A stretch of DNA of 64,000 nt from an uncultured Thermodesulfobacteriota bacterium (GCA_964611295.1 CAZSWV010000001.1:1869-65868), one strand, 5' to 3'; shown: positions 29,939 to 44,623, counted from the first letter of the stretch. Numbers and translations are program-made. Notes: generated by a model not told the origin, from the letters alone.

Positions 29939-30514
29939 GTGTCGAAGAGGGAGAGGGTACTTGAGGTAGCTGTAAAGCTTTTTGCTGCGCGGGGTTTTGA
30001 TGGGACTTCGGTGAGGAAGATAGCGGATGAAGCGGGGTTAAGTGTGGCGGGTATGTTTCACTATTTTCCTTCCAAAGAGGATATCCTTTTTGAGATCATG
30101 AGCAGTTTTTTAGACGAGGGGTTGAAGAGGCTTAAGGAGATCTGTTCGGGGACTAAGGGGACGGTGGAGAAGCTTGAGGAGGTGTGTAGGTTCTTCACCG
30201 AGTATTTTGCTGGGCACATGGATGAGTTGACCATCCTTTCTTCTGAGGGCAAGAGCCTTTCCTTGGAGCACAGGGAAGTGTTCAAGCAGAAGCAAAGGGA
30301 GTACCTTGAGGCGATCAGAGGGCTTTTAGAGGAGTTGAAGGCACAGGGTATGTTGAAAGAGATGGACACCACTGTGCTTTCCTTTTTGTTTTTCGGCATG
30401 GCCCTGTGGACTTCTCGTTGGTATAACCCCAAGGGCAGGGTCAACCCTAAGGAGCTAGGCGATATCATGAGCGAGGTCTTCTTACGAGGGATCCTCAAGG
30501 AAGGGGGAAGATGA
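29939..30514 (+). CDS. TetR/AcrR-family transcriptional regulator (FadR-like context)
   Basis: 191 aa with a GTG start and HTH FAARGFDGTSVRKIADEAGLSVAGMFHYFPSKEDIL. It has a 4-nt overlap with the next gene. Confidence 0.9.
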   Translation: MSKRERVLEVAVKLFAARGFDGTSVRKIADEAGLSVAGMFHYFPSKEDILFEIMSSFLDEGLKRLKEICSGTKGTVEKLEEVCRFFTEYFAGHMDELTILSSEGKSLSLEHREVFKQKQREYLEAIRGLLEELKAQGMLKEMDTTVLSFLFFGMALWTSRWYNPKGRVNPKELGDIMSEVFLRGILKEGGR

Positions 30515-33348
30515 AGGCCGACCTTCTGGTCTTAGGGGCGGGTGTAGCGGGTATGAAGGTATCGCTTGAAGCGGCCTCAAGGGGTTTGGAGGTCGTCGTA
30601 GTGGAGGGCTCTCCTTTTGTGGGTGGAGAGATCACCTATCTTGAGCGTCAGTTCCCCACTGATAGGTGCCTTTTATGTCAGATGTTACCTACAACAGTGC
30701 GAAGGGGGGAGGGTGAGTATTGTCTACGCAGGTCCTTCAGGTATCCAGGGGTGGTCCTCTTTACGCGTTCAGAGCTTGTGAAGCTTGAAGGACAAGAAGG
30801 CGATTTCAAGGCCTTGGTGAAGAGGGTTCCAAGGGGGGTTAAAGAGGAAAGGTGTATAAGTTGCCTCAAGTGCATAGAGGTTTGCCCAAGAGAGGCACGT
30901 GACGATTTTAACCCCTTCGCTTCCAGGAAGGCCATGTTCTTAAAAGGTCCAGAGCCTATCCCCCCTGTGCCTGCTGTGGATTGGTCCCTTTGTGACCGGT
31001 GTGGAAATTGCGCAGAGGTCTGTCCTACGAAGGCGGTGGACTTGTGGGGGGAAGGAGAGGAATTGGAGTTATCGGTGGGTTCAGTGGTGCTAGCCACGGG
31101 TTTTGTACCTTATGATCCCACGGCCTTAACCCAATATGGCTATCAGAGGTTTAAGAACGTTTTAACGGCCTTTGACTTTGAGAGGATGTTGAGCCCCCTT
31201 GGTCCCTTTTTGCCTTTTAGACCTTCAGATGGAGAGGTCCCGAGGAAGTTGGGGTTTCTCTTGTGTGTGGGTTCAAGGGACAAGGACTGGGAGCCTTGTT
31301 CGGGTTCTTGCTGTATGATCGCCTTGAAACAAGCACGGCTCACCAAAGAAAGGCTTCCAGAAGCTGAGGTAGTGCTTTTCTATATGGACATAAGGACCTA
31401 TGGAAAGGGGTACCATGTTTACCTGGAGGAGGCCAAGAAGAGGGGAATAAAGTTCATAAGGGGCAGGGTTCCAAAGCTATGGGAGGATCCTGTATCCAAG
31501 AGGGTGCTTTTGCGTTATATGGAAGCCGAAGAGGTGAAAGAAGAGGCCTTTGACCTCGTAGTGTTAGTTACAGGACAAAGACCCCCTGAGGGTTTTGAAG
31601 GCCTTTCTCGGGTTCTTGGGCTCGAATGCGATCCATGGGGGTTCATCAAGGCCGAAGGCGTTAAGACCTCAAGGGGGGGCATTTACGTATGCGGATCTGC
31701 TTCGGGTCCTAAGGACATTGTCGATACCGTAACTGAAGCGCTTGCAGTAGCCTCTGAGGTTTCAAAGGGGAAAAGGGGAAAAGGGGAAAGAAGGGCGCCT
31801 TTACCTGAGCCTTCCGAGGGCCTTGACCTCATACTGTGCAGTTGCGGAGGTGAGTTGCCCGTAGACGTGTTCCTTGAAGAGTTTAAGGGCAAGTTCGACC
31901 GAGTAACGGTCAAAGAATACCTATGTCTTGAAGGGGGAGAAGGCCTTGGCGACCGTAGGACCGTAATAGGTGCGTGCAGTCCTTATTGGTATAAGGAGAA
32001 GGTACGCTCATCCCTTGGTCTGCCTCCAAGCCGCTTGGAGTGGGTTAACCTCAAAGCCGCCTTCACTGCCCAGGGGAGAGAAGCCGTATTGGGCCTTCTT
32101 TTAGGGGCAAGGGAAAGGCTCATAAGGAGTAAGGAGGTCGTACGCTTCGAAGATGGACCTGTCCCATCGGCGGTAGTTTTAGGTGGAGGCCTTTGCGGCC
32201 TTAATGTAGCACTTGGGCTCGCCCGTGAGGGCCTTATGGTTCACCTCATAGAGAAAGAAGGCGAACTCGGTGGGGTCATGCGGGAATACGTTTTCTTGAG
32301 GGAGGAGTTATTGGGGCTTCTTAAGGAGCTGGAAGGGGTTCAAGGGGTTGAGGTATACCTGAAGAGTCGTTTGAAAAAAGTGGTCGGTGTGGGTGGGAGG
32401 TTCAAGGTTGAGATCGAGAAGGCCAACGGTGAGGTCAAGGACCTTGAGGTTGGGGTTATAGTCGTCGCTATAGGTTCGAAGAGGGTTTTGCCAGAGGGGT
32501 TTTCTTCCCTTAAAGGTCAAAGGGTGGTTTCCCAAAGGGAGCTTTGGAACGACTTAATGGTGGGACGCCAACCGGAAGGGACCGTCCTGATGCTACTGTG
32601 TGGTGGAACCCGCACGGGGGAACGTCCGTGGTGTAACCGTTACTGTTGTGAAGAGGCTTTGAGTAACGCCTTGGCGTTGAGGCAAAAAGGGGTTGAAGTT
32701 TTCATATTGTTTAAGGACATGATGAGCTATGGGCTCAAGGAGTCCCTTTACTTTGAAGCGAGGAGAAAGGGTGTAGTTTTCTTGAGGTACGAGGAAGAGC
32801 CCGAGGTAGAGGTTTCAGATAAGGTGAGGGTACGCCTCAAGGGGGTTGAACTGGAAGGGGACCTTTTGGTGATACCAGAGGTGGAGGTCCCGCGGGAGGA
32901 CAATTGGGAATTGGCAGGAGTCCTGGGGGTGGACCTCGATCTGCAGGGCTTTTTCAAGGAAGCTGAACCCAAGTTTAGGCCAGTGGATGCCTTGAAAGAG
33001 GGCATTTACATATGTGGGGGGTGCCATAGCCCGCGGTCCTTCGAGGAGGCAAAGGTACAGGCGAAGGCAGTGGTCCAGAGGGTAATGGCCTTTATGTCCC
33101 AAAGGGCCCAAGGGTTCCCCCTTTCCTATGTGGAAGAAAGGCGCTGTTCTGGTTGTGGCCTCTGTGTAAAAGCATGCCCATATGGGGCCAGATACTTGGA
33201 GGAAGGGGAAAAGGTGGCAAAGGTCATAGCTTCCATATGTCAGGGGTGTGGTACTTGTTGTTCCCTTTGCCCGAACGGGGCCTCAAAACTTGAGGGGGCA
33301 AGGGAAGAACAGGTCCTTTCAGCCATTGAAGCCATGGTGGGGAGGTAG
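30511..33348 (+). CDS. HdrA-like FAD/Fe-S oxidoreductase, internally duplicated (two HdrA-type modules, 945 aa)
   Basis: Module 1 has LVLGAGVAGM...FPTDRCLLCQMLP, an inserted 2x[4Fe-4S] (CISCLKCIEVCP, CDRCGNCAEVCP), and LLCVGSRD...CSGSCCM. Module 2 has VVLGGGLCGL... and LLCGGTR...CNRYCCEE. There is a C-terminal 2x[4Fe-4S] (CSGCGLCVKACP, CQGCGTCCSLCP). Confidence 0.85.
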   Translation: MKADLLVLGAGVAGMKVSLEAASRGLEVVVVEGSPFVGGEITYLERQFPTDRCLLCQMLPTTVRRGEGEYCLRRSFRYPGVVLFTRSELVKLEGQEGDFKALVKRVPRGVKEERCISCLKCIEVCPREARDDFNPFASRKAMFLKGPEPIPPVPAVDWSLCDRCGNCAEVCPTKAVDLWGEGEELELSVGSVVLATGFVPYDPTALTQYGYQRFKNVLTAFDFERMLSPLGPFLPFRPSDGEVPRKLGFLLCVGSRDKDWEPCSGSCCMIALKQARLTKERLPEAEVVLFYMDIRTYGKGYHVYLEEAKKRGIKFIRGRVPKLWEDPVSKRVLLRYMEAEEVKEEAFDLVVLVTGQRPPEGFEGLSRVLGLECDPWGFIKAEGVKTSRGGIYVCGSASGPKDIVDTVTEALAVASEVSKGKRGKGERRAPLPEPSEGLDLILCSCGGELPVDVFLEEFKGKFDRVTVKEYLCLEGGEGLGDRRTVIGACSPYWYKEKVRSSLGLPPSRLEWVNLKAAFTAQGREAVLGLLLGARERLIRSKEVVRFEDGPVPSAVVLGGGLCGLNVALGLAREGLMVHLIEKEGELGGVMREYVFLREELLGLLKELEGVQGVEVYLKSRLKKVVGVGGRFKVEIEKANGEVKDLEVGVIVVAIGSKRVLPEGFSSLKGQRVVSQRELWNDLMVGRQPEGTVLMLLCGGTRTGERPWCNRYCCEEALSNALALRQKGVEVFILFKDMMSYGLKESLYFEARRKGVVFLRYEEEPEVEVSDKVRVRLKGVELEGDLLVIPEVEVPREDNWELAGVLGVDLDLQGFFKEAEPKFRPVDALKEGIYICGGCHSPRSFEEAKVQAKAVVQRVMAFMSQRAQGFPLSYVEERRCSGCGLCVKACPYGARYLEEGEKVAKVIASICQGCGTCCSLCPNGASKLEGAREEQVLSAIEAMVGR

Positions 33349-33350
33349 AG

Positions 33351-33767
33351 ATGTCCCAAAGGAAGGTAATAGGGTTCTTCTGCCATTGGTGTACATCTAC
33401 AGCCGCTGACCTTGCTGGTACCTTGAGGCGGACCTATCCTCCTTCGGTGAAGCCCATACGGGTGATGTGTACAGGTTCGGTGGATCCGGTCTATGTCTTA
33501 GATGCCCTTCTAAAGGGTGCTGATGCCGTATGGGTAGGGGGGTGTAATCCAGGCGAATGCCACTATGTTAGTGGCAACCTCAAGGCTAGGAGGCGTATAG
33601 CCCTGATCAAGGCAATACTGGAGGCCTTGGGCCTTGACCCCCAGAGGTTGTACCTCACGTGGATAAGCGCAAGCGAAGGACCACAGTTTGCCGAATGGGC
33701 CAAAAGGATCGACGAGCAATCCGAGCAGAGGGGGCCAAGTCCTTTCTTGGGACTTAAGACTACATAA
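33351..33767 (+). CDS. mvhD: MvhD/FlpD-like [2Fe-2S] protein (methyl-viologen-reducing hydrogenase delta-subunit family)
   Basis: 138 aa reading IGFFCHWCTSTAADLAG...IRVMCTGSVDP...GADAVWVGGCNPGECHY. Confidence 0.88.
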   Translation: MSQRKVIGFFCHWCTSTAADLAGTLRRTYPPSVKPIRVMCTGSVDPVYVLDALLKGADAVWVGGCNPGECHYVSGNLKARRRIALIKAILEALGLDPQRLYLTWISASEGPQFAEWAKRIDEQSEQRGPSPFLGLKTT

Positions 33768-33777
33768 GGGGTGAAGG

Positions 33778-34878
33778 ATGGCATACGGCGCTTGGTTTGA
33801 GGCCGATGGGAAAGAGATCCAAAGGGTTTTAAGGGAACTCTGGAGGCACATGCTCGAGCGTTTCTTCTCCGGGCTGGTAGTGACCATTGAGGTGGAAGGA
33901 GGTGGTCTTGCACCGGGCCTTTTGCCAAAAGGGGGTGATGTGGAAGGCACAAGGGCTTTGGCGCCCTATATGGCCTTGAACGCTGCTAGGGTATTACAGG
34001 CTCTAACGAAGGTTACCCCCCCTTCAGAACCCATAGGGGCTGTTTTGAGGCCATGTGAAGCAAGGGCTACTGTTGAACTTATGAAGTTGAATCAAGTCTC
34101 AAGGGAGGGCCTTTTTGTGATCTCCATAGACTGCTTGGGTACCTATCCTTTGCAAGTGTATAAAGAAAGGCTCAAAGAAGGGGTAGCTGAAGAGAAGTTG
34201 CCCGAGGAAGGGTTGCTCAGGGAGGCATGTAAGGTATGCCTTTGGCCCCTTTCACCATGGGCAGATATAAGGGTGGGCTATATAGGGCTCAGGGATGGGG
34301 TGTTCCTCGAAGCCTTGACCGAAAGGGGGGAAGAAGTACTCAAGGCCTTAGGGCTCAAACCAGATCGCGTGGAGCTTCCGGAGCGCCTCAAGGAGCTTGA
34401 CGAACTCCTCCAAAGGAGGCGGGAAGCGGAGGAGGAGTTCTTTAGGCGCCAAAGGGAAGAACTTTGGGGCCATCAAGCCTTGCTCAAGTCCTTAACGTGG
34501 TGTGTGAAATGCCACAATTGTATGACGGTATGTCCCATATGCTACTGTAGGGAGTGTTTCTTCAACTCCCCGAGCCTTGAGTTCGAGGCCGATAGGTTCC
34601 TCGAACTTAGCAAAAGAAGGCCGGCACTTAGGCTTCCAACCGAGGTCCTTCTGTTCCACCTGACCAGGATGGCCCATATGTCCACTTCGTGTGTAGCTTG
34701 TGGGATGTGCCAAGAGGCTTGTCCACAGGGTGTGAAGGTCTTTGAGCTTTTCAAGGTCGTTTCCAAGCGCACGCAGGCCCTTTTCGAGTACGAACCGGGG
34801 CGGGATCCGGAGGAGCCATTACCCCTTACGGTCTTCAAGGAAGAGGAACTGAAAGAGGTAGAGGAGCCGAAAATATGA
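33778..34878 (+). CDS. Fe-S protein with FrhB/FdhB-like N-terminal region and Cys-dense C-terminal cluster motifs
   Basis: 366 aa. IGAVLRPCEARATVELMKLNQ...FVISIDCLGTY resembles the FrhB/FdhB PCq..a...L...iG..C pattern. The C-terminus has CVKCHNCMTVCPICYCRECFF and CVACGMCQEACPQG. Confidence 0.55.
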   Translation: MAYGAWFEADGKEIQRVLRELWRHMLERFFSGLVVTIEVEGGGLAPGLLPKGGDVEGTRALAPYMALNAARVLQALTKVTPPSEPIGAVLRPCEARATVELMKLNQVSREGLFVISIDCLGTYPLQVYKERLKEGVAEEKLPEEGLLREACKVCLWPLSPWADIRVGYIGLRDGVFLEALTERGEEVLKALGLKPDRVELPERLKELDELLQRRREAEEEFFRRQREELWGHQALLKSLTWCVKCHNCMTVCPICYCRECFFNSPSLEFEADRFLELSKRRPALRLPTEVLLFHLTRMAHMSTSCVACGMCQEACPQGVKVFELFKVVSKRTQALFEYEPGRDPEEPLPLTVFKEEELKEVEEPKI

Positions 34879-35378
34879 AGCTCAAGGAGAAGTTCCCGAG
34901 CGTTTACGAATGCTACCAGTGCATGACCTGTACTTTGGGTTGCCCCTTAGCACATAAGATGGAGTCCAAACCCCATGAGCTTGTGAAGTCGGTCCTTTTG
35001 GGCAGGGACGAAGAGGTGCTTCGTTCAGATACCCCATGGATTTGCGCCTCATGCGAGGCCTGTGCAGCGAGATGTCCAAATGGCATAGAGCTAGTGGAAC
35101 TGATGGACCTGGTCAGAAAAGAGGCCATGGACCTTGGGGCGGTAAGGCCTAAGGAAAGGGACTTATACAAGGCCTTCATGGAGCAGATCAGGAAGAGGGG
35201 CAGGGTCCAGGAGTTCTGGCTTGTCTTCCGGTTGAAGAGGGCACAAGGCTTCAAGGTTTCCCTTGAGGAGGTCCTATTGGGGTTGAGGATGTTTCTTAAG
35301 GGCAAGCTTAACCCCTTTACGGGTTTCAGGAAGGGGCCTAAGGGGCTTGAAGAGGCCTTCAAGGAGGTTCTGGGGTGA
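34875..35378 (+). CDS. hdrC: heterodisulfide reductase subunit C-like protein
   Basis: 167 aa with CYQCMTCTLGCP and CASCEACAARCP. Confidence 0.85.
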   Translation: MKLKEKFPSVYECYQCMTCTLGCPLAHKMESKPHELVKSVLLGRDEEVLRSDTPWICASCEACAARCPNGIELVELMDLVRKEAMDLGAVRPKERDLYKAFMEQIRKRGRVQEFWLVFRLKRAQGFKVSLEEVLLGLRMFLKGKLNPFTGFRKGPKGLEEAFKEVLG

Positions 35379-36208
35379 GGTTTGCTTACTATCCGGGTTG
35401 TTCCTTAGAAGGATCGGCCAAGGAATACGACGAATCCTTACGCGCGGTGATGGGCTTAGTTGGGATAGAGCTTGTGGAGATAAAGGACTGGAATTGTTGT
35501 GGAGCCTCTGCGGTACACGGAGTCACTCCTTTTCTTAGGGTCCTTTTGCCTGCTAGGGACCTCCTTGAGGCGGAGTCCATGGGGCTTGACATCATAGCGC
35601 CCTGTGCAGCCTGTTTTTTGAGGTTAAAGGAGGCAAAGAGGACCCTAAAGGAGAGGTCCTCCTTCAAGGACAAGGTCGAAAAGGTCCTTGATAAGGCCTT
35701 CAGAGGTGAGGTCGAGGTTTACCATCCCCTTGAGGTGTTAAGCCGAAAGGAGGTGAGGAGTAGGTTAGAAGATAAAGCCATCAGGCCTCTAGAAGGGGTT
35801 AAGGCAGTGTGTTATTACGGATGCTATTTGGTAAGGCCGAAAGGCCTGACGGGGATAGACGACCTTGAAAATCCAACCGTCATGGAGACGATCCTTGAGG
35901 TCGTAGGGGTAGAGGTGCTCGATTGGTCCTTTAAGGTGGACTGTTGTGGCGGGAGTCATTCGCTCCTTCGGCCGGAATTAGTTAGGGAGCTTTCTGGAAA
36001 GCTCGGGGAGAGGGCAAGACAAGCGGGGGCAGACTTAATAGTGACTGCTTGCCCCCTTTGTCAGTCTAACTTGGAGATATACCAAGGTCCCAAAGGTGTG
36101 CCCGTGCTTTACTTTACAGAAATACTGGGAGTGGCCATGGGGGCCGAGGGTGCTTCCAAATGGCTAAAGAGGCATCTGATAAAGCCTCCCGAAGGGCTTT
36201 GGGGATAA
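35375..36208 (+). CDS. hdrB: heterodisulfide reductase subunit B-like protein (two CCG domains)
   Basis: 277 aa with YYPGCSL, WNCCGAS, CYYGCYL, VDCCGGS and ACPLCQ. Confidence 0.87.
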   Translation: MRFAYYPGCSLEGSAKEYDESLRAVMGLVGIELVEIKDWNCCGASAVHGVTPFLRVLLPARDLLEAESMGLDIIAPCAACFLRLKEAKRTLKERSSFKDKVEKVLDKAFRGEVEVYHPLEVLSRKEVRSRLEDKAIRPLEGVKAVCYYGCYLVRPKGLTGIDDLENPTVMETILEVVGVEVLDWSFKVDCCGGSHSLLRPELVRELSGKLGERARQAGADLIVTACPLCQSNLEIYQGPKGVPVLYFTEILGVAMGAEGASKWLKRHLIKPPEGLWG

Positions 36209-36231
36209 AAGATGGGAAAGGAGGGAAGGGG

Positions 36232-37377
36232 ATGTTTGAGCTTACTGCTGAACAACAGGACATCAAGAAGGCAGCTCGTGAATTTGCCGAAGGCGAAATA
36301 AGGCCCATAGCCAGGGAATTGGACGAGAGGGAGGAGTTCGATCCCAGGCTATGGAAAAAGGCAGCGGAATTGGGTTTCCTGGCGGTATTTGTCCCTGAGG
36401 AGTACGGAGGGGCAGGTTATGGTTACCTAGAGCAGTGCCTCATCATAGAGGAGTTTGCGCGGGTCGATACGGCAGTGGCTCAATCCATTGAGTCCACCTT
36501 TTTTGGTTCACAGATCATCTTGCTTTTCGGCTCTGAAGAACAGAAGAGGAAGTACCTCCCTGCCCTTTGTAGTGGTCAGATGCGCATGGGGGTTGCAGTG
36601 ACAGAGCCCGATGCGGGAAGTGACGTGGCCTCTATATCTACCCGTGCCGAAAGGGATGGGGACGAGTATGTGATAACGGGGAACAAGATCTTCATAACCA
36701 ACGCCAATGTAGCCGACTTCCTCATAGTGGCCTGCGTTACAAATCCAGAGGCCCCTCGTAAGCACGAGAGGTTAAGCCTTATAATCGTAGAAACCTCCAG
36801 ACCTGGCTACGAATCTATAAAGTTGAAGAGGAAACTGAGTCTAAGGTGTTCGGACACAGGGGAGGTGGCCTTAAAAGGCGTGAGGGTACCCCGTTCTAAC
36901 CTCATAGGTGAAGAGGGGAAGGGTTTTTACTACCTCATGGAGTTCTTCAACCGCACCCGACTTACCGTGGCTGCTCAGGCCGTAGGCACTGCCCAGGGGG
37001 CCTTGGAGAAGGCTATAGCCCATGTCAGACAAAGGAGGCAATTTGGCCAACCACTTGCCTCCTTTGAGGCAATACAACATAAAGTGGCTGAAATGGCCAC
37101 CCTTGTGGAGGCCTCTCGCAGTCTCCTTTACCGTGCTGCAGCCAAGGTAGACCGAGGCGAGGTAGATCCAGCCCTCATCGCAATGGCCAAGTGGTTTTCC
37201 TCGGAGGTAGCGGTAAAGGTGGCTGATGAAGCCATACAGTTACACGGCGGCTACGGGATCTTGGAAGAGTATGATGTGGCCCATTATTGGAGGGATGCAA
37301 AAGTCCTGGAAATATATGAAGGCACCAAGGAGATAGAGAAGCTCCTCATTGCAAGAAGGATCCTTGGGAGGTTTTGA
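36232..37377 (+). CDS. acyl-CoA dehydrogenase
   Basis: Reads MFELTAEQQDIKKAAREFAE..., with a C-terminal catalytic-base region YEGTKEIEKLLIARRILG. I chose ATG 36232 (GGAGGGAAGGGG upstream) over the track start 36160, which overlaps hdrB. Confidence 0.93.
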   Translation: MFELTAEQQDIKKAAREFAEGEIRPIARELDEREEFDPRLWKKAAELGFLAVFVPEEYGGAGYGYLEQCLIIEEFARVDTAVAQSIESTFFGSQIILLFGSEEQKRKYLPALCSGQMRMGVAVTEPDAGSDVASISTRAERDGDEYVITGNKIFITNANVADFLIVACVTNPEAPRKHERLSLIIVETSRPGYESIKLKRKLSLRCSDTGEVALKGVRVPRSNLIGEEGKGFYYLMEFFNRTRLTVAAQAVGTAQGALEKAIAHVRQRRQFGQPLASFEAIQHKVAEMATLVEASRSLLYRAAAKVDRGEVDPALIAMAKWFSSEVAVKVADEAIQLHGGYGILEEYDVAHYWRDAKVLEIYEGTKEIEKLLIARRILGRF

Positions 37378-38507
37378 TGGAGTTCGCACAGAAGTTTGAG
37401 CTTTATGCCTGCCTACAATGTGGCAAGTGCACCGGTGGATGTCCTGTGGCCATGCGGACCCCTTTGAACGTGAGGATGCTTATGAGGGAAGCCCTCATCT
37501 ATGGGGTCGATGTCCTTTTGGGACGTCCGGAGATTTGGGACTGTACTACCTGTAAGACCTGTACCCTAAGGTGTCCACGGAAGCTTGAGCCCTCCGAAGT
37601 GCTGATAGCCATTAGGGCAAAGTTGGTGGAATCTGGCCGCATACCGAAAAACGTGATCGATGCCTTGGAGGCCACATACGTTCACGGAAACCCGTGGGGA
37701 AGGGCGCGCCAGAAAAGGACCGAGTGGGCCAAAGGGTTAGGGGTTAAGGAGGTTGCAGCTGGAGAGAGGGTAGAGCTATTGGGCTTTGTCTGTTGTGCTG
37801 TAGCTTACGACCCAAGGCTTCAACCCATTGCCCAAACCTTTGCCAAGGTCATGGCCATCTCAGGGGTGGACTTCGGCATCATAGGGATAGAGGAGAGTTG
37901 CTGCGGAAATGAAATCCGGAGGATGGGGGAAGAGGGGTTGTTCGAAGAACTTAAGGACTCCAACAAGGCCTTGATCGAGGGATCTGGGGCAAAGGAGGTG
38001 GTAGCGCTTTCGCCTCACTGTTTCAACGCTTTGAAGAACGAATACAGGCTGGAGGGCGTAAGGGCGATCCATTACACGGAAATATTGGAGGGATTGATCA
38101 GTCAAGGGCGTTTGCCCCTTAAGGGACCTTTGGCCAAAAGGGTCGTTTATCATGATCCTTGTTTTTTAGGCAAACAAAATGGGGTATACGAGGCTCCGAG
38201 GAGGGTATTGGAGGCCATAATCGGTACTGCCCCTTTGGAGTTTTCGAGGTCTAGGGAGACAAGCCTCTGTTGTGAAGGGGGAGGGGGTAGGATGTGGGTA
38301 GAGGGGACGGGCACAGGGGTTCGAAACAGCGAAATAAGGGTCAAGGAGGCCCTGGAGATGGGCGCAGAGGTGGTAGCCACAGCATGTCCCTTCTGTTTAT
38401 TGACCTTAGAGGATGCCTTGAAGACTACGGGCCTTGAAGGGAAGCTTGAGGTTAAGGACATCTTGGAGCTTCTCGGAGAGGCCCTTGGGGTGGAGGTGGA
38501 TCGATGA
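37374..38507 (+). CDS. soluble (Fe-S)-binding oxidoreductase with 2x[4Fe-4S] motifs and two CCG domains (HdrD/GlpC/LutA-like)
   Basis: 377 aa with CLQCGKCTGGCP, CTTCKTCTLRCP, VCCAVAYD, ESCCGNE, HDPCFLG, SLCCEGGGG and ACPFC. No hydrophobic segment long enough for a transmembrane helix is visible. Confidence 0.82.
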   Translation: MMEFAQKFELYACLQCGKCTGGCPVAMRTPLNVRMLMREALIYGVDVLLGRPEIWDCTTCKTCTLRCPRKLEPSEVLIAIRAKLVESGRIPKNVIDALEATYVHGNPWGRARQKRTEWAKGLGVKEVAAGERVELLGFVCCAVAYDPRLQPIAQTFAKVMAISGVDFGIIGIEESCCGNEIRRMGEEGLFEELKDSNKALIEGSGAKEVVALSPHCFNALKNEYRLEGVRAIHYTEILEGLISQGRLPLKGPLAKRVVYHDPCFLGKQNGVYEAPRRVLEAIIGTAPLEFSRSRETSLCCEGGGGRMWVEGTGTGVRNSEIRVKEALEMGAEVVATACPFCLLTLEDALKTTGLEGKLEVKDILELLGEALGVEVDR

Positions 38508-39283
38508 AAGTGGTGGTCTGTCTGAAGAGGGTACCAGATGTAGCCGAGGTGGACTTACAACTGGACCCATCTGGCAGAAGGATAAGGACTGAGGGGTTGC
38601 CTTACGTCATAAACGATTGGGATAACTACGCCCTTGAGGAGGCCATTCGTATTAAAGAGCGTACAGGTGGTCAAGTGATAGCCTTGACGGTTGGAAAGGA
38701 ACCAGATGAGGAGGTGTTAAGGCGTGCCTTGGCCCTTGGGGCTGATGATGCCATTAGGATATGGGATCCCTTGCTAGAGGAGGCAGACCCCTTCCTTATC
38801 GCAGTGGTGTTATCCCAAGCCATAAAGGGCCTTGCCTTTGACCTTGTGCTTACAGGGGTTCAGGCCTCCGATGACGGCTACGCCCAGGTTGGTCCTATGA
38901 TGGCCGAGATGTTGGGGATACCACATGTGACGCTTGTGACCCATCTTGGTTTTGAAGGCAAAAAAGCACTGGTAAGGAGAGAACTAGAGGGAGGGCTTGA
39001 AGAGGAGGTGGAAGTAGAACTTCCGGCACTGTTGACCATCCAAAGTGGCATAAACGAACCACGCTACGTTTCTGTCTTAGGGATAAAAAGGGTAGCCAAG
39101 AAAGAGATAAAAGTCCTGGACTTAGAGGCATTAGGGATATCCCCCTCTGAAATTAGGCCAAAAATTAAGGTTGAGAAGCTCTTTGTGCCTCCCAGCGGTG
39201 AAGGAGCGGAGATCCTTAAGGGCTCTCCTGAAGAGGTCTCCGATAAGGTCCTTGAGATCCTTGAGAAAGGAGGTGTGATCTGA
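38504..39283 (+). CDS. etfB: electron transfer flavoprotein beta subunit
   Basis: 259 aa with MKVVVCLKRVPD, NDWDNYALEEA and QASDDGYAQVGP. Confidence 0.93.
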   Translation: MKVVVCLKRVPDVAEVDLQLDPSGRRIRTEGLPYVINDWDNYALEEAIRIKERTGGQVIALTVGKEPDEEVLRRALALGADDAIRIWDPLLEEADPFLIAVVLSQAIKGLAFDLVLTGVQASDDGYAQVGPMMAEMLGIPHVTLVTHLGFEGKKALVRRELEGGLEEEVEVELPALLTIQSGINEPRYVSVLGIKRVAKKEIKVLDLEALGISPSEIRPKIKVEKLFVPPSGEGAEILKGSPEEVSDKVLEILEKGGVI

Positions 39284-39284
39284 G

Positions 39285-40256
39285 ATGAGGCCAATAATAG
39301 TATTGGCTGAACACCGTCAAGGACAGTTACGCGACATCACCTTTGAGATGTTGAAAAAAGCACAAGGGCTTTCTGAGGCTTTAGGGCAGGAAGTCCACAC
39401 CGTTTTGATAGGAGAAGGCCTTTCGGAAATGGTCGAAGGGGTAAGACCTTATTGTCATAAGGTCCACCTGGTACCTGTGGAAGGCGTAAAAGAATTCGAA
39501 GGCGAAGTATACCAAGCTGCTTTGACAAGGCTCATCAAGGACCTTACCCCCTCGCTAGTCCTCATAGGCCATACGGCCCAAGGGATGGACCTTGCCCCTG
39601 CGCTAGCCTGTGCCATTAACAGTCCTTTGGTCAGCGACTGTTATGACTTCGGCTTTAGGGAAGGTCGCTTTTGGGCCTTCAGACAGGTCTACGGTGGGAA
39701 ACTATCGGCCCAAGTGGAGGTCGAAGGGAGTCCGGTGATAGTGACGGTTCGATCAGGTTCCTTTGAGGCCGAGGGATTGAGGACTTTAGGGGGACAGGTG
39801 GTAAGTTGGGAAGGGCCAGTAGGGGTTTTCCCCTACAAAAGGTTCCTGAGGTTCGTAGAAGCCCCTCGCGCAGAAGTGGACATCACGCAGGCCGAGGTCA
39901 TCGTTTCGGTGGGAAGGGGAATAGGAGGACCAGAAAACATCCCCTTAGCAGAGGAACTCGCAAAGGCCTTAGGAGGGGTGCTGGCATGTTCGAGACCAGT
40001 TGTGGACAAGGGTTGGTTGCCAAAGGAAAGGCAGGTGGGTACTTCTGGTAAGACTGTCAAACCTAAGGTCTACATCGCCTTAGGGATAAGCGGGGCTTTT
40101 CAACACGTGGCGGGTATGAAGCAATCTGGGCTCATCATAGCCGTTAACAAGGATCCAAAGGCTCCTATTTTCGGTGTGGCCCACTACGGGATTGTGGGGG
40201 ACCTGTTACAAGTAGTCCCCGTGCTTTTGGCCAAACTTAAAGAGAGGAAGAAGTAA
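39285..40256 (+). CDS. etfA: electron transfer flavoprotein alpha subunit
   Basis: 323 aa with SRPVVDKGWLPKERQVGTSGKTVKPKVYIALGISGAFQHVAGM...AVNKDPKAPIF. It has no N-terminal ferredoxin domain. Confidence 0.93.
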   Translation: MRPIIVLAEHRQGQLRDITFEMLKKAQGLSEALGQEVHTVLIGEGLSEMVEGVRPYCHKVHLVPVEGVKEFEGEVYQAALTRLIKDLTPSLVLIGHTAQGMDLAPALACAINSPLVSDCYDFGFREGRFWAFRQVYGGKLSAQVEVEGSPVIVTVRSGSFEAEGLRTLGGQVVSWEGPVGVFPYKRFLRFVEAPRAEVDITQAEVIVSVGRGIGGPENIPLAEELAKALGGVLACSRPVVDKGWLPKERQVGTSGKTVKPKVYIALGISGAFQHVAGMKQSGLIIAVNKDPKAPIFGVAHYGIVGDLLQVVPVLLAKLKERKK

Positions 40257-42941
40257 ATGGCAGAAAAGGCGGTTTTGGTAATAGGGGGAGGGATAGCCGG
40301 AATGCAAGCGGCCTTGGACGTGGCCGATGCAGGTTATAAGGTTTACCTTGTGGAAAAGGAGGGATGGATTGGAGGGCATATGGCCCAACTTGATAAGACC
40401 TTCCCCACCAACGACTGCGCTATGTGTACCATCTCGCCAAAGCTTACCGAGGTAGGGCAACATCCAAATATTGAGTTATTGACGAATAGCACGGTGATAT
40501 CCCTTGAAGGCCAAGAGGGTGAGTTCAGGGCCAAGGTCCTCAAAAGGCCTAGGTTCGTTGACCCTTCTAAATGCAATGCCTGTGGGGAGTGTATAAAGGT
40601 CTGCCCGGTAGAACTTCCTAACGAGTTCGACCAGGGGTTAAGTAAGAGGAAGGCCATTTACAAGGCTTATCCTCAGGCCATACCCAATGCCATGGCCATC
40701 ACCAAACTCCAAAGGCCTCCATGTGTCCTCAGCTGTCCTGCAGGGGTTAACGTTCAAGGCTATATAGCCCTCCTTTTGGCAGGGAAGTTGGAAGAGGCAT
40801 ATGAGCTCATTTGGGAGAGAAACCCCTTTGTAGGGACCTGTGGGAGGGTTTGTTACCATCCTTGTGAAAAGGCGTGCAACAGGAATCAGCTGGATGAGCC
40901 TGTGGCCATCAACAGCCTCAAGAGGTTTATCAGCGACTGGGCCAGGGACAGGGGTATAAGGCCTAAGGTACGGGTTTCGATTGACCCTGCGAGGCCAAAG
41001 GTAGCAATTGTGGGGTCGGGGCCAGCTGGCCTCACAGCTGCCAGGGACCTCCTCCTTATGGGATATCCTGTAACGGTCTTTGAGGCTGCTTCAAACCTAG
41101 GAGGCATGCTATCCCAGGCCATCCCCCCTTATAGACTTCCCAGGGAGGTCTTACAGTTCGACATAGAGAGGATCTTGGAGCTCGGTTTAGAGGTAAAAAC
41201 AGGCGTACGGGTTGGTAGAGACATTACCCTTGAACAGTTGAGGGAAGATGGTTATAGGGCCATATTCTTAGCTATAGGTCTTCCAAAGGGGCAAGGGTTG
41301 AAGATAGAAGGGGCTGAGCTCAAAGGGGTCCTTTTCGCCCTTGACTTCTTGAGAGAGGTAAATAAAGGAGGAAGGCCCTCTTTAAGGGAGCCTGTGGTGA
41401 TAATAGGGGGTGGTAACACCGCTATAGATACAGCCCGTACTGTCCTGAGGTTAGGGGTAAGGGATGTGACCATCCTTTACCGACGAACCGAAGGGGAAAT
41501 GCCAGCTTCCCCTGAAGAGGTCCAACAGGCAAAAGAGGAAGGGGTAGGCTTTGAATTCTTGGTGACGCCGGTAAGGTTTTTGGGGGAAAGGGAGGTGGAG
41601 GCTGTTGTCCTTCAAAGGATGGAGCTCGGCGAGCCAGACGAAAGTGGCAGGAGGCGACCTGTGCCCCTTCCAGGTTCGGAATTCGTGAAGCAGGTCGGGA
41701 CCGTTATCCTTGCCATAGGGCAGACAGGGGACCTCGATTGGGTGAGGGACTGTGGCATAAGGCTCACTCGGGCAGGGACCATAGAGGTGGATCCTTTGAC
41801 ACTCCAAACCTCGGTTCCCGATGTCTTTGCCGGTGGAGACGTGGTTACGGGTCCTGGGTTCGTGGTAGACGCCATAGGTCAAGGCCATCAGGCAGCTATT
41901 TCCATAGACCGCTACCTTAGGGGCATGGATTTAAGGGAAGGGAGGGATAAAGGGGCCATCGAGCCTGCGAGTTTGCCACGTATCGTACGATCTATTTCCT
42001 CCAGGGTACAAACCAAGAAGCTTGAAGCCTCCAAGAGGGTGAAGTCCTTTGAAGAGGTGGAATTGACCTTAAAAGAGGAAGAGGCCAAAGGCGAAGCGGA
42101 AAGGTGTCTTCAGTGTGGGGTTTGTTGTGAGTGCTTCCAATGCGTAAAGGCGTGTGAACAAAAGGCCATAGACCATTCGCAAAGGGAAGAGGAGGTCGAA
42201 CTATCGATAGGGGCTGTGATTGTGGCTACGGGATACGATCTTTTCGATCCACGTCAGAAGCCAGAATATGGTTATGGGCGCATAAAAGGGGTGATAACAG
42301 GCCTTGAACTCGAACGCCTCATGTCCTCTTCTGGGCCTACGGGAGGGGATCTGACAATAGAAGGTAAAAGGCCCAAAGACGTGGTCTTTATCCAATGTGT
42401 GGGATCAAGGGATCGGACGGTTAACAGGCCTTATTGTTCCCGCGTCTGTTGTATGTATGTAGCCAAACAGGCCCAAGAGGTAAAAGAACGCTTGAAAGAG
42501 GTAAGGATCACCATCTGTTATATGGACGTCAGGGCGTACGGAAAGGGCTACGAGGGCCTCTACGAAAGGGTCCAACGGCGTGGGGTCCTTTACCGCCGTG
42601 GCATTCCATCAGAAGTCTACCAGAGGGACGGGAAGTTGATCCTCAAGGGTGAAGACACCTTATTGGGGAAGCCTTATGAACTTGAGGCAGACCTCGTAGT
42701 CCTAGCATGTGGCATAGGACCTTCGGAAGGGGCCAAAGAATTGGCCTCGGTCCTCGGGCTTGAGGTCGATGAGCACGGGTTCTTTAAAGAGGCAAATCCC
42801 CTGGATCCTGTGGTTTCTACAAGACCAGGGGTTTTCCTTGCTGGCTGTTGCCAGGGGCCAAAGGACATAAGCGATTCGGTAGCCCAAGCCTCAGGTGCCG
42901 CCGCTAGGGCCTTGGCTTTGATATCGAGGGTTAGGTCATGA
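40257..42941 (+). CDS. HdrA-type flavoprotein interrupted by a GltD/NfnB-type NAD(P)H:Fe-S module (HdrL-like, 894 aa)
   Basis: The HdrA N-terminus reads VLVIGGGIAGMQAALDVA...FPTNDCAMCTISPKL, with CNACGECIKVCP. The insertion at ~40730-41930 has CPAGVNVQGYI...GRVCYHPCEKAC, VAIVGSGPAGLTAA and VVIIGGGNTAIDTA. The HdrA C-terminus has FIQCVGSRD...YCSRVCCMY. Confidence 0.85.
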   Translation: MAEKAVLVIGGGIAGMQAALDVADAGYKVYLVEKEGWIGGHMAQLDKTFPTNDCAMCTISPKLTEVGQHPNIELLTNSTVISLEGQEGEFRAKVLKRPRFVDPSKCNACGECIKVCPVELPNEFDQGLSKRKAIYKAYPQAIPNAMAITKLQRPPCVLSCPAGVNVQGYIALLLAGKLEEAYELIWERNPFVGTCGRVCYHPCEKACNRNQLDEPVAINSLKRFISDWARDRGIRPKVRVSIDPARPKVAIVGSGPAGLTAARDLLLMGYPVTVFEAASNLGGMLSQAIPPYRLPREVLQFDIERILELGLEVKTGVRVGRDITLEQLREDGYRAIFLAIGLPKGQGLKIEGAELKGVLFALDFLREVNKGGRPSLREPVVIIGGGNTAIDTARTVLRLGVRDVTILYRRTEGEMPASPEEVQQAKEEGVGFEFLVTPVRFLGEREVEAVVLQRMELGEPDESGRRRPVPLPGSEFVKQVGTVILAIGQTGDLDWVRDCGIRLTRAGTIEVDPLTLQTSVPDVFAGGDVVTGPGFVVDAIGQGHQAAISIDRYLRGMDLREGRDKGAIEPASLPRIVRSISSRVQTKKLEASKRVKSFEEVELTLKEEEAKGEAERCLQCGVCCECFQCVKACEQKAIDHSQREEEVELSIGAVIVATGYDLFDPRQKPEYGYGRIKGVITGLELERLMSSSGPTGGDLTIEGKRPKDVVFIQCVGSRDRTVNRPYCSRVCCMYVAKQAQEVKERLKEVRITICYMDVRAYGKGYEGLYERVQRRGVLYRRGIPSEVYQRDGKLILKGEDTLLGKPYELEADLVVLACGIGPSEGAKELASVLGLEVDEHGFFKEANPLDPVVSTRPGVFLAGCCQGPKDISDSVAQASGAAARALALISRVRS

Positions 42942-44623
42942 AGTGGGGGAGGCGTGTAGGCGTATATATTTGCCATTGTGGGAGGAACATTGCAGGCTAT
43001 GTGGACATAGAAGCACTTGTGGAAAAGGTGCGGGGGCTAAAAGGGGTTGTTACAGTCAAACACGAAAGGTACATGTGTTCTGAACAAGGCCAACAGTTGA
43101 TAAAGGAAGACATAAGGGAAGGCCTGGTGGATAGGGTAGTAGTGGCGTCTTGTACCCCGACCATGCACGAAAGGACCTTCCGAAGGTGCGTTTCAGAGGC
43201 CGGTTTGAACCCTTTCCTTTACCAGCAGGTAAATATAAGGGAGAACTGCTCTTGGGTGACAGAGGACGTCCATGAGGCCACTCAGAAGGCCTTCGAGCTG
43301 ATAAAGGCAGGGGTTTGGCGGGTAAAGTGTCTTGAGCCCCTTGAACCTTTGCAATACCCTCTCATCCCTTCCACTTTGGTGATCGGGGGAGGTATAGCGG
43401 GGATAATAGCCGCTTTGGATATATCGGAGGCAGGGTTTGAGGTCATAGTGGTGGAGAGGGAGGGAGAGCTTGGGGGGTGGGGGAGGAAGATAGGAGTAAG
43501 TTTTCCGCAACTTGTGCCTGTGAAGGATTTCCTTGAAGGACTTATAGGAAAGCTTCTTTGCAGGTCAAACGTGAAGGTCTACCTCAAGAGCGAAGTAGAG
43601 CAGGTAGAAGGGTTTTCAGGCAATTTCACCGTTAAGATAAGGACTGAGAAAGGGGTATTCGAAGAGAAAGTGGGCAGTATAATAGTAGCTACTGGTTTTA
43701 CGCCCTTTGATGCGAAGAGGAAGGCCGAGTATGGCTACGGGAGGTTCCCCCAGGTGTTGACAACTGTAGATGTAGAGGAGAGGTTTGTTAACGGATGGCC
43801 TGAAAGAGGGGGAATAAAATCGGTGGCCTTTATCCAATGTGTGGGGTCAAGGGATCAAACTATAGGAAGACCCTATTGTTCACGCGCCTGCTGTACAGTG
43901 GTGGCCAAGCAAGCCCTGCTCCTCAAAAGGCTTTTCCCTGAGGCCAGGGTTTACGTCTTTTATATGGACGTAAGGACCTTCGGCAAGGGGTATGAGGAGC
44001 TTTTTGAAGAAGCCCAAAGGGAAGGGGTTGTATACATTAGGGCCAATCCCGGTGAGGTCTATCCCCTGAGGGACAAGCTTGTAGTGAGGTATGAGGATAC
44101 CCTTTTAGGAAGGCCTTCGGAGCTTGAAGTTGACCTTTTAGTTTTGGCCGTTGGTATGGAACCGCCACAGGGGGTGAAGGAACTGATGAAGAAACTCTAT
44201 CTGAATGCAGATGCCGATGGTTTTTTCCTAGAGTCCCATCCCAAACTTGGTCCTGTGGATACCTTTTCCGAAGGGGTGTTTCTGGCTGGTTGTTGTCAGG
44301 GGCCGAAGGACATCCTGGATACCATCTCACAGGCCCATGCCGCGGCTGCGAGGGCTACGAGGCTGTTCCATGTAGGGAAGGCGATAAAAGAGCCGGTTGT
44401 AGCAGAGGTAGATCATGAAGTATGCGCGCGGTGTAGGATATGTGAGGCTACATGTAGCTTTAACGCCGTTACCTATGACCCCAAGGCCAAACGTATGAAA
44501 GTGATAGAAGCAGCTTGCAAGGGCTGTGGGGCTTGTGCTGCGTCATGTCCTTCGGGGGCTATGAGCCTTAAACACTTCCGTTACAGACAGACCTTACTCC
44601 CCATCGAAGCCGTCCTTCATTAA
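42938..44623 (+). CDS. hdrA: heterodisulfide reductase subunit A-like flavoprotein (methanogen-style N-terminal domain)
   Basis: 561 aa. It has VGVYICHCGRNIAGYVDIEAL...YMCSEQGQ...VVVASCTPTMHERTFR...NIRENCSWV, then VIGGGIAGIIAA and FIQCVGSRD...YCSRACCT. The C-terminal 2x[4Fe-4S] is CARCRICEATC and CKGCGACAASCP. Confidence 0.88.
   Translation: MKWGRRVGVYICHCGRNIAGYVDIEALVEKVRGLKGVVTVKHERYMCSEQGQQLIKEDIREGLVDRVVVASCTPTMHERTFRRCVSEAGLNPFLYQQVNIRENCSWVTEDVHEATQKAFELIKAGVWRVKCLEPLEPLQYPLIPSTLVIGGGIAGIIAALDISEAGFEVIVVEREGELGGWGRKIGVSFPQLVPVKDFLEGLIGKLLCRSNVKVYLKSEVEQVEGFSGNFTVKIRTEKGVFEEKVGSIIVATGFTPFDAKRKAEYGYGRFPQVLTTVDVEERFVNGWPERGGIKSVAFIQCVGSRDQTIGRPYCSRACCTVVAKQALLLKRLFPEARVYVFYMDVRTFGKGYEELFEEAQREGVVYIRANPGEVYPLRDKLVVRYEDTLLGRPSELEVDLLVLAVGMEPPQGVKELMKKLYLNADADGFFLESHPKLGPVDTFSEGVFLAGCCQGPKDILDTISQAHAAAARATRLFHVGKAIKEPVVAEVDHEVCARCRICEATCSFNAVTYDPKAKRMKVIEAACKGCGACAASCPSGAMSLKHFRYRQTLLPIEAVLH

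Follow-up and report, generated by a model that had tools for sequence, protein, structure and literature searches.

A putative two-gene HdrL with an NfnA/StnC-like insert beside ETF and acyl-CoA dehydrogenase genes in an uncultured Thermodesulfobacteriota bacterium

What is an HdrA-type flavoprotein for when a second, complete redox module is set into the middle of its chain, and with which partners would it work? The question is raised by an open reading frame (ORF) at positions 40257-42941 of a 64,000-nucleotide stretch of DNA from an uncultured Thermodesulfobacteriota bacterium (GCA_964611295.1 CAZSWV010000001.1:1869-65868), referred to here as the window. An earlier note, made from the sequence alone, described the ORF as an HdrA-type flavoprotein split by a GltD/NfnB-type NAD(P)H-binding Fe-S module and stated that large proteins of this kind had been noted in sulfate reducers under the name HdrL. 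The literature bears this out. The architecture was published for Desulfobacterium autotrophicum (Strittmatter et al. 2009, PMC2702500), and proteomics of Syntrophobacter fumaroxidans revealed an HdrABC/HdrL/MvhD/Fe-S-protein set under sulfate-reducing conditions, whose reaction was only speculated upon (PMC5947623). In line with the earlier note, our literature search found no purification, structure or biochemical study of an HdrL-type protein.

In identity and architecture, the gene is almost certainly an intact, conserved member of the HdrL type. The best explanation of the locus as a whole, to which we give somewhat better than even chances by analogy with solved enzymes, would be an HdrL encoded by two genes, with a port for NADP(H) and with ETF and acyl-CoA dehydrogenase on its high-potential branch. 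The parts list and the order of the parts in the chain are read directly from the locus; the remainder of the mechanism is modelled on solved homologues.

The HdrA core of the 894-aa protein

The ORF is an uninterrupted frame with an ATG start and a product of 894 aa. Its features are as follows.

40257..42941, plus strand: hdrL N-half gene (894 aa), an HdrA thioredoxin-reductase-like (TrxR-like) core with an NfnL/GltD-like insert
40257..40556, plus strand: aa 1-100, first part of the HdrA FAD (TrxR-like) domain, with GGGIAG, C54 and C57 (ungapped alignment of aa 5-107 to 5odc_A 145-247)
40557..40712, plus strand: aa 101-152, first half of the inserted-ferredoxin domain, with C106, C109, C112 and C116, all invariant (Pfam, HdrA alignment)
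40713..41924, plus strand: aa 153-556, NfnL/GltD-like module (Pfam, NCBIfam, HMMER, Foldseek, conservation)
41925..42122, plus strand: aa 557-622, lower-confidence linker and relocated segment (aa 578-622) ending in RCLQC, with C617 and C620 (second HMMER stretch)
42123..42176, plus strand: aa 623-640, second half of the inserted-ferredoxin domain, with C623, C626, C629 and C633 (alignment to HdrA 288-305)
42177..42938, plus strand: aa 641-894, remainder of the HdrA TrxR-like domain (HdrA alignment)

All motifs on which the first reading was built are present in the translation (CPAGVNVQGYI, GRVCYHPCEKAC, VAIVGSGPAGL, VVIIGGGNTAIDTA and FIQCVGSRD...YCSRVCCMY). By Pfam, an FAD Rossmann domain (aa 6-43) comes first, followed by Fer4 (aa 101-119), Fer4_20 (aa 140-233, E 4e-22) and Pyr_redox_2 (aa 248-543, E 9e-51). 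The HdrA models of NCBIfam match in two separated stretches (HdrA2, 552 bits), and PRK12771, an NAD(P)-binding, GltD-related model, covers aa 145-653 with 551 bits against a cut-off of 516. When the protein was compared with solved HdrA chains (8rvv, 5odc) by phmmer, aa 5-149 aligned to HdrA 142-290 and aa 621-886 to HdrA 288-558. The HdrA sequence is therefore broken cleanly and at a single point, inside the inserted-ferredoxin domain, between the CxxCxxCxxxC motifs C106-C116 and C623-C633. The split was correctly foreseen from the sequence; the insert, put at ~400 aa at that time, measures ~470 aa (aa ~150-620).

An AlphaFold2 model of the protein, built with 30 homologues, has a mean pLDDT of 87.4 and a pTM of 0.79, and Foldseek matched its core to HdrA 8rwn_A with a TM-score of 0.92 normalised on the target. 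The E-values of the Foldseek and domain matches exclude chance. C57 is the equivalent of Cys197 of HdrA 5ODC (offset +140), and K737 that of Lys409, which hydrogen-bonds the flavin N5 in that structure (PMC6405883). K737 and the cluster Cys residues beside the flavin (C714, C727, C731 and C732) are invariant among the 30 homologues.

The protein runs from the FAD motif to HdrA residue ~565, and thus has neither the HdrA N-terminal domain nor the C-terminal ferredoxin domain. It also scores below the NCBIfam equivalog cut-offs (HdrA2, 552 against 1100; HdrA, 420 against 1400). The absent terminal domains and these scores rule out a four-domain HdrA of the methanogen type, as found in HdrABC-MvhAGD.

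The NfnL/GltD-like insert

Pfam, NCBIfam, HMMER and Foldseek agree with the original assignment of the insert as a GltD/NfnB-type NAD(P)H module, and mapping of the domain boundaries with Pfam and NCBIfam places an NAD(P)H-binding fold in the middle region. Its Rossmann motifs for FAD and NAD(P)H span aa 248-260 and aa 380-392, respectively; after the second come Y408-R409-R410, which are conserved and match NADPH-using relatives. Searched alone, the insert gave 421 bits with NfnA of Caldicellulosiruptor (Csac NfnA, 9bov_A), 413 with NfnA of Thermococcus sibiricus (9n5u_A) and 368 with StnC of Sporomusa (8oh5_C); scores were lower with Pyrococcus NfnL (329), Thermotoga NfnB (309) and GltD (235). 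Foldseek likewise aligned it with Csac NfnA (E 1.7e-52, root-mean-square deviation 2.3 A over 483 columns). NfnA and StnC, the corresponding subunits of NfnABC and StnABC, thus show the top likeness to the insert in both sequence (46% identity) and fold.

The order of the segments distinguishes the two groups of relatives. HMMER aligned the insert with NfnL in two pieces, aa 153-554 to NfnL 49-470 and aa 578-622 to the NfnL N-terminus (residues 3-47); the latter, relocated segment also matched residues 9-43 of Thermotoga maritima (Tm) NfnB as a second HMMER stretch. Since the segment with the first CxxC is placed after the module, the module is circularly permuted relative to NfnB and GltD and collinear with NfnA and StnC. 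Indeed, aa 153-630 run collinear with residues 101-575 of 9bov_A and 8oh5_C.

The cluster ligands separate these groups as well. The module's own ligand positions are C156, C160, C199, C203, C207 and K222. In Csac NfnA, the flavin-adjacent cluster A7 is bound by Cys108, Cys147, Cys151 and Lys170 (PMC11829005). At an ungapped offset of 52, these ligands fall on C160, C199, C203 and K222. The four positions, fully or almost fully conserved across the 30 aligned sequences, correspond to a 3Cys+Lys cluster of the A7 type. NfnL and NfnB carry Glu, a cluster ligand, at the position of K222. C156, C207, C617 and C620 are conserved (C617 and C620 nearly invariant among the 30 homologues), whereas C195 is not; the four conserved residues would presumably bind the second, distal cluster of the module. 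On the alignment the ligand set is complete, with two ligands contributed by the relocated segment. The GltD/NfnB signature claimed in the earlier note thus holds for the fold and the clusters, and fails for the collinear order and for the fourth ligand of the FAD-proximal cluster, which is Lys and not Glu.

Pyrococcus furiosus NfnL (5jca_L), Tm NfnB (4ylf_B) and GltD share with the insert the fold, the FAD and NADPH sites and two [4Fe-4S] clusters, but they differ from it in the place of the N-terminal CxxC segment, in having Glu for Lys and in their NfnS or GltB partners. Among the 12 operon genes described below we found no match to a PyrK/NfnS-like [2Fe-2S]-FAD small subunit, and no gltB-like gene lies near the 894-aa ORF. 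A bifurcating NfnL/NfnB identity is ruled out by the relocated RCLxC segment, by K222 in place of Glu and by the missing small-subunit partner; GltD identity was rejected on its scores (TIGR01317, 236 against a cut-off of 447.7; TIGR01318, 316 against 483). The likeness to NfnA and StnC extends to the permuted order, with RCLxC after the flavin domains, to the 3Cys+Lys cluster and to the YRR motif. The difference here is the host, an HdrA core in the window and a NuoG/Fdh-like subunit in NfnA and StnC. Correspondingly, NuoF/NuoE-like BfuBC partners are not found among the operon genes.

In StnC, the FAD does not bifurcate; it supplies a separate site of bifurcation (PMC10482914). By this analogy, the insert is probably a non-bifurcating NADP(H) port of the NfnA/StnC subtype, a view that we hold with moderate confidence. 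Alternatively, the insert FAD might itself be a second bifurcation site, as in NfnSL, so that HdrL would hold two bifurcating flavins of different families. Such an arrangement, reminiscent of the serial flavins of the earlier note, has been proposed for HdrA9-11 of ANME-1 (PMC9012536), and it would agree with the NfnL fold of the insert and with the invariant R293, the equivalent of NfnL R201. The same Arg, however, is conserved in StnC, whose flavin does not bifurcate; the flavin-adjacent cluster has the Lys of NfnA and StnC where NfnL and NfnB have Glu; and the topology is that of the permuted NfnA/StnC form. The missing NfnS/PyrK-like partner also counts against this alternative, because the insert flavin is left with one visible electron path only. 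We consider a second bifurcation site quite improbable. Together, the 3Cys+Lys cluster and the permuted topology predict a plain NADPH port, a prediction that can be tested.

The partner gene and the two-gene form of HdrL

The ORF is followed at once by a second HdrA-type gene.

42938..44623, plus strand: hdrL C-half gene (561 aa), with the HdrA N-terminal domain, a TrxR-like core and a C-terminal 2x[4Fe-4S] ferredoxin domain

Its start overlaps the stop of the N-half gene as ATGA. The 561-aa protein aligns to HdrA 13-250 and 325-653; it lacks the whole inserted-ferredoxin domain and both Cys residues of the TNDCxxC motif (and hence an equivalent of Cys197), and it keeps an equivalent of Lys409 (K324). 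Most database homologues of the ORF are 1476-1565 aa long and a minority ~895 aa. In one fused homologue of 1486 aa (P0040), residues 14-909 align to the 894-aa ORF (50% identity) and residues 929-1478 to the next ORF (40%). Because one fused chain covers both ORFs, we read the 561-aa gene as the C-terminal half of HdrL and the pair as a split HdrL. This contradicts the initial view of the next gene as an independent, methanogen-style HdrA. Nor does the suggestion of two bifurcation-capable flavins in series or in alternative complexes stand, as the complementary losses described next mark the gene as the other half of one pseudo-dimer.

The N-half lacks the N-terminal and the C-terminal ferredoxin domains, and the C-half lacks the inserted-ferredoxin domain and Cys197. 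In HdrA, Cys197 of one subunit completes the N-terminal cluster of its partner (PMC9012536), and tandem or fused HdrA pairs with such complementarity probably form heterodimers (Chadwick et al., PMC9012536). With these complementary losses, the two products should form an asymmetric HdrA-like heterodimer, or pseudo-dimer. The closest published description is again that of ANME-1, where HdrA9-11 carry an NfnB-like insertion within the inserted-ferredoxin domain (Chadwick et al. 2022, PMC9012536). The ~500-aa insertion that breaks this domain and the complementary N-terminal domain and Cys197 of the paired HdrA units are common to both systems; the window pair differs in being bacterial and in being tied to ETF and acyl-CoA dehydrogenase and not to methane metabolism.

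The HdrL of D. autotrophicum, in turn, likewise combines an HdrA core with an NAD(P)H module like that of GltD/NfnB, and its operon also holds mvhD, hdrB, hdrC and a gene for an FdhB/FrhB-like Fe-S protein. This likeness is taken from the published description; for full-length alignments we used fused relatives of ~1480 aa, which align over their whole length (50% identity in the N-half, 40% in the C-half). The window form differs in consisting of two overlapping genes (894 and 561 aa) instead of the single ~1480-aa chain that is typical, although not strictly defining, of HdrL. It also lies beside genes for acyl-CoA dehydrogenase, a CCG protein and EtfBA and not directly after hdrCB, and the window protein has no selenocysteine.

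The two-gene form recurs in two genomes of the same genus (G001 and G003), in two of the same order (G010 and G013) and in one of the same phylum (G022, near a Syntrophorhabdus metagenome-assembled genome, MAG). In a tree of the N-half region (FastTree, with a midpoint root for drawing only), 13 split sequences, that of the window included, form one clade with 100% local support and 60-88% identity; within it, N-half and C-half are always adjacent. A fused protein is sister to this clade, which lies nested among fused forms. Further split sequences occur elsewhere on the tree, and at least five changes of the split/fused label are needed.

Could the split have arisen by faulty assembly, or by a recent mutation that makes a pseudogene of a fused hdrL? 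Additional breaks, which may be errors, do occur in MAG relatives (the N-half in two frames in G013, a broken C-half in L004). Against this stand the same split site in all 13 sequences of the clade and the intact frames with a start codon overlapping the stop. Moreover, the stretch is present in independent hot-spring metagenome assemblies of several studies with substitutions only and no indels; for example, a 9164-nt contig of run X5 spans 39000-44362 with 4 substitutions and 0 gaps. On these sequence data the explanation is refuted, and its probability is practically negligible. Two apparent 'joints' in the assembly comparison were set aside, since their sides are 23 nt long and look like paralogue cross-matches.

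A different proposal is that the two proteins act independently, the one of 894 aa for instance as an NAD(P)H:acceptor oxidoreductase in homodimeric form and the one of 561 aa in a separate HdrABC-MvhD complex. The genes are indeed separate in the window, and with two HdrBC-like units and a further double HdrA in the operon, alternative assemblies are conceivable. We nevertheless regard this as very unlikely, given the single fused chain of most relatives, the complementary losses of domains and of Cys197, the ATGA overlap and the constant adjacency in the split clade.

Several side observations concern the form of the gene. In G013, the N-half (L108, G013:C57, 2462-5310) is found in two frames corresponding to query aa 2-490 and 474-893, with the break within the NfnL-like module, the result either of a second split or of a frameshift in the MAG. 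In L001, L008 and L012 (Dehalococcoidales and Eubacteriales MAGs), HdrL has a third layout, of ~1135-1160 aa: a single HdrA unit, with its N-terminal domain retained and a short extension at the C-terminus, carries the same insert, and HdrC-HdrB stand ahead of it. In one sediment metatranscriptome, contigs 95-99% alike bridge the etfA/hdrL-N (39806-40287) and hdrL-N/hdrL-C (42667-43044) junctions, which is compatible with co-transcription in a related strain; carry-over of DNA is possible in such libraries.

HdrL as such is widespread. Full-length copies occur in about one third of 41 sampled relatives, and the protein is also found in Chloroflexota, Bacillota, Actinomycetota, Thermoplasmatota and others, with no reaction assigned to any of them. 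The relatives returned by a pattern scan of genome contigs were all at or below 50% identity.

The operon and its proposed electron paths

The HdrL pair closes an operon of 12 genes in the order TetR, double HdrA, MvhD, FrhB/FdhB-like Fe-S protein, HdrC, HdrB, acyl-CoA dehydrogenase, CCG protein, EtfB, EtfA, HdrL-N and HdrL-C. The features upstream of the pair are the following.

29939..30514, plus strand: TetR-family regulator at the head of the operon
30511..36208, plus strand: second Hdr module, comprising a fused double HdrA (945 aa), MvhD, FrhB/FdhB-like Fe-S protein, HdrC and HdrB (Pfam, NCBIfam)
36160..37377, plus strand: acyl-CoA dehydrogenase, 405 aa (Pfam, NCBIfam)
37374..38507, plus strand: soluble HdrD/BamD-like Fe-S/CCG protein, 377 aa (Pfam, CCG x2 and Fer4)
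38504..39283, plus strand: etfB (Pfam, NCBIfam)
39285..40256, plus strand: etfA (Pfam, NCBIfam)

The TetR regulator is of the fatty-acid type. With MvhD at 33351, HdrC at 34875 and HdrB at 35375, HdrL is co-located with mvhD and hdrBC-type genes. The 945-aa double HdrA has the layout of HdrL minus the insert; the alignment of its first unit with HdrL-N jumps from aa 6-148 straight to aa 620-883. Among solved structures, the CCG protein is best matched by the central segment (residues 408-742) of 9ojn_A, an 'iron-sulfur-binding reductase' of 1042 aa (184 bits); HdrC and HdrB come after it. Going by its name, we take 9ojn_A to be a membrane ETF dehydrogenase, whose soluble core the CCG protein would then resemble. 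The CCG protein has no hydrophobic segment beyond a Rossmann-type score, and no membrane-like segment was found in any operon protein. It is a candidate link between ETF and the HdrA-type unit.

G001 and G003 share all 12 genes and their order. In G010 (L100) and G013 (L108) the two halves of the operon are swapped, with acyl-CoA dehydrogenase-CCG-EtfBA-HdrL-N-HdrL-C first and double HdrA-MvhD-FrhB-like-HdrCB second; being swapped yet adjacent, they argue that both modules work together. G022/Syntrophorhabdus has CCG-EtfBA-HdrL-N-HdrL-C-MvhD-FrhB-like-HdrB. The acyl-CoA dehydrogenase is listed beside the HdrL pair, with CCG and EtfBA, in all of these genomes (G001, G003, G010, G013 and G022/Syntrophorhabdus). 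In a Thermoplasmatota MAG, acyl-CoA dehydrogenase-EtfBA-HdrCB stands ahead of a set of fused HdrL, MvhD and FrhB-like protein. The link with ETF is thus recurrent and lineage-specific, not universal, and our literature search found no published report of a unit of acyl-CoA dehydrogenase, Etf and HdrL. Genes for MvhD and an FrhB/FdhB-like protein lie near HdrL in nearly all contexts, with no catalytic subunit of a hydrogenase or formate dehydrogenase.

Solved systems suggest how these parts could be wired. NADPH is oxidised in StnABC and NfnABC by a module of the insert's subtype, at a non-bifurcating flavin, and single electrons are sent through clusters to a separate bifurcation site (PMC10482914, PMC11829005). 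Methanogen Hdr and BamE follow a common plan: from the TrxR-like domain's cluster the path goes to HdrBC or BamD, the low-potential electron passes by the N-terminal cluster and the inserted-ferredoxin domain, and MvhD docks at the C-terminal ferredoxin domain (PMC9012536, bioRxiv 10.64898/2026.04.10.717634). BamE is a fused HdrA dimer of which only one flavin bifurcates; BamD, which is HdrD-like, passes the high-potential electron of the HdrA-type flavin to ETF, and that ETF can reduce crotonyl-CoA via a butyryl-CoA dehydrogenase (bioRxiv 10.64898/2026.04.10.717634). The Geobacter metallireducens BamE-BamD-ETF set shares with the window the pseudo-dimeric form of its HdrA-type unit, a CCG subunit that is soluble and HdrD-like, and an ETF that carries the high-potential electron (bioRxiv 10.64898/2026.04.10.717634). 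In contrast to class II benzoyl-CoA reductase, the window operon has no tungsten-containing BamBC and no NuoEF-like BamGHI, and NADP(H) would enter through the built-in NfnL-like insert. The window pair also keeps Lys at both HdrA-type flavin sites, one of which has Gln in BamE.

Following these models, the non-bifurcating FAD of the insert would convert the hydride of NADP(H) into single electrons. These would pass in turn through the module clusters C160/C199/C203/K222 and C156/C207/C617/C620, then through both clusters of the split ferredoxin domain and the N-terminal cluster of the partner, completed by C57, to an HdrA-type flavin. Just three positions separate C620 from C623; since they belong to neighbouring clusters, this spacing speaks for a short distance between them. 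The 561-aa partner would supply the N-terminal cluster domain that the N-half lacks, together with the MvhD-accepting C-terminal ferredoxin domain. The pair would thereby reproduce the HdrA homodimer in asymmetric form, with one full set of branches, and the fully wired flavin is probably that of the 561-aa protein. On the high-potential branch, in this lineage, electrons would run from the soluble CCG protein to EtfAB and on to acyl-CoA dehydrogenase, much as BamD delivers them to ETF. An NAD(P)H port onto a bifurcating flavin, as first postulated for this subunit, would agree with the NADPH entry domains of NfnABC and StnABC, the closest solved relatives of the insert.

The arrangement suggests that bifurcation or confurcation is linked here to NADP(H), ETF lying on the high-potential branch. 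By analogy, the net reaction could be NADPH + ferredoxin(ox) + enoyl-CoA <-> NADP+ + ferredoxin(red) + acyl-CoA, a formulation whose chances we put appreciably short of even. It would be the NADPH version of the Bcd/Etf reaction, reversed in a fatty-acid oxidiser. More tentatively still, the HdrL pair, the CCG protein, EtfAB plus acyl-CoA dehydrogenase might make up one soluble acyl-CoA/NADP(H)/ferredoxin complex on an HdrA-type bifurcating flavin. If so, the step of anaerobic fatty-acid oxidation that is energetically hardest would have a route that does not depend on the membrane, and an HdrL would for the first time have an assigned reaction.

A number of points weigh against this picture. 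No enzyme of the HdrL type has been purified, so all electron paths are drawn by analogy, and the apparent preference for NADPH over NADH comes from the YRR motif only. Both HdrA-type units keep the Lys409 equivalent (K737 and K324), so that by sequence either flavin could be the bifurcating one. The best solved match of EtfB is the non-bifurcating ETF of M. methylotrophus, followed by the bifurcating CarD. In the fused relatives elsewhere, the usual context is HdrC-HdrB-HdrL-MvhD, without ETF. Finally, the inserted-ferredoxin domain is the low-potential exit and not the entry in solved Hdr and Bam complexes, so that a donor port for NADPH at this place requires re-use of the branch.

The last point leads to the main competing scheme, in which NADP(H) replaces ferredoxin on the low-potential branch. 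NADPH (low) and ETF/acyl-CoA or thiols (high) would then confurcate to a mid-potential acceptor, or the reverse, the acceptor being reached via the C-terminal ferredoxin domain, MvhD and the FrhB-like protein. The insert does sit at what is the low-potential output of HdrABC-MvhAGD and BamE; the near-constant company of MvhD and the FrhB/FdhB-like protein, free of hydrogenase or formate dehydrogenase catalytic subunits, would fit; and the 945-aa double HdrA, whose inserted-ferredoxin domain is uninterrupted, could be the true ferredoxin site. On the other hand, NADPH is the mid-potential donor in every solved enzyme with this module subtype (NfnABC, Stn), no acceptor near -170 to -240 mV was identified, and dsrA was not found in the host genome, which has only a DsrC/TusE-like gene. 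We judge this scheme doubtful. For the two-gene HdrL with an NADP(H) port and ETF on the high-potential branch, the features worth keeping are the two complementary subunits, the non-bifurcating NfnA/StnC subtype of the insert and the recurrent pairing with ETF and acyl-CoA dehydrogenase.

The locus thus holds an ordinary HdrL in a less ordinary setting, among genes of fatty-acid oxidation, and leaves the definition of HdrL unchanged. It is favourable for working out the function of the protein, with its halves separate, a TetR regulator of the fatty-acid type at the head of the operon and ETF and acyl-CoA dehydrogenase alongside.

Two observations concern variation of the operon within the genus. 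The acyl-CoA dehydrogenase is 90-91% identical between species (window against L098 and L099) and the remaining operon proteins 50-79%, so that the enzyme is either under unusually strong constraint or recently exchanged. A full-length HdrL match is absent from two of the four same-genus genomes, G004 (95% complete) and G002 (68%), and the operon may be accessory within the genus.

The host genome comprises 1.6 Mb in 24 contigs and is 94% complete; by its kinship to a genome close to Syntrophorhabdus, the host belongs to the Thermodesulfobacteriota. It contains a gene of the DsrC/TusE family (C5:100629-100928; 120 bits, above the cut-off), and dsrA (TIGR02064) had no match in this 94%-complete genome, a further difference from D. 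autotrophicum. The DsrC-centred role of HdrL proposed for sulfate reducers is unsupported in this genome. At least four further HdrA-type genes are present (C3:165621-168383, C3:184290-187040, C12:13550-16288 and C5:38782-40065), three of which encode double HdrAs of ~1036-1047 aa. Several of them have one in-frame TGA in the region aligning to HdrL-N aa 3-150, and are therefore probably selenocysteine forms.

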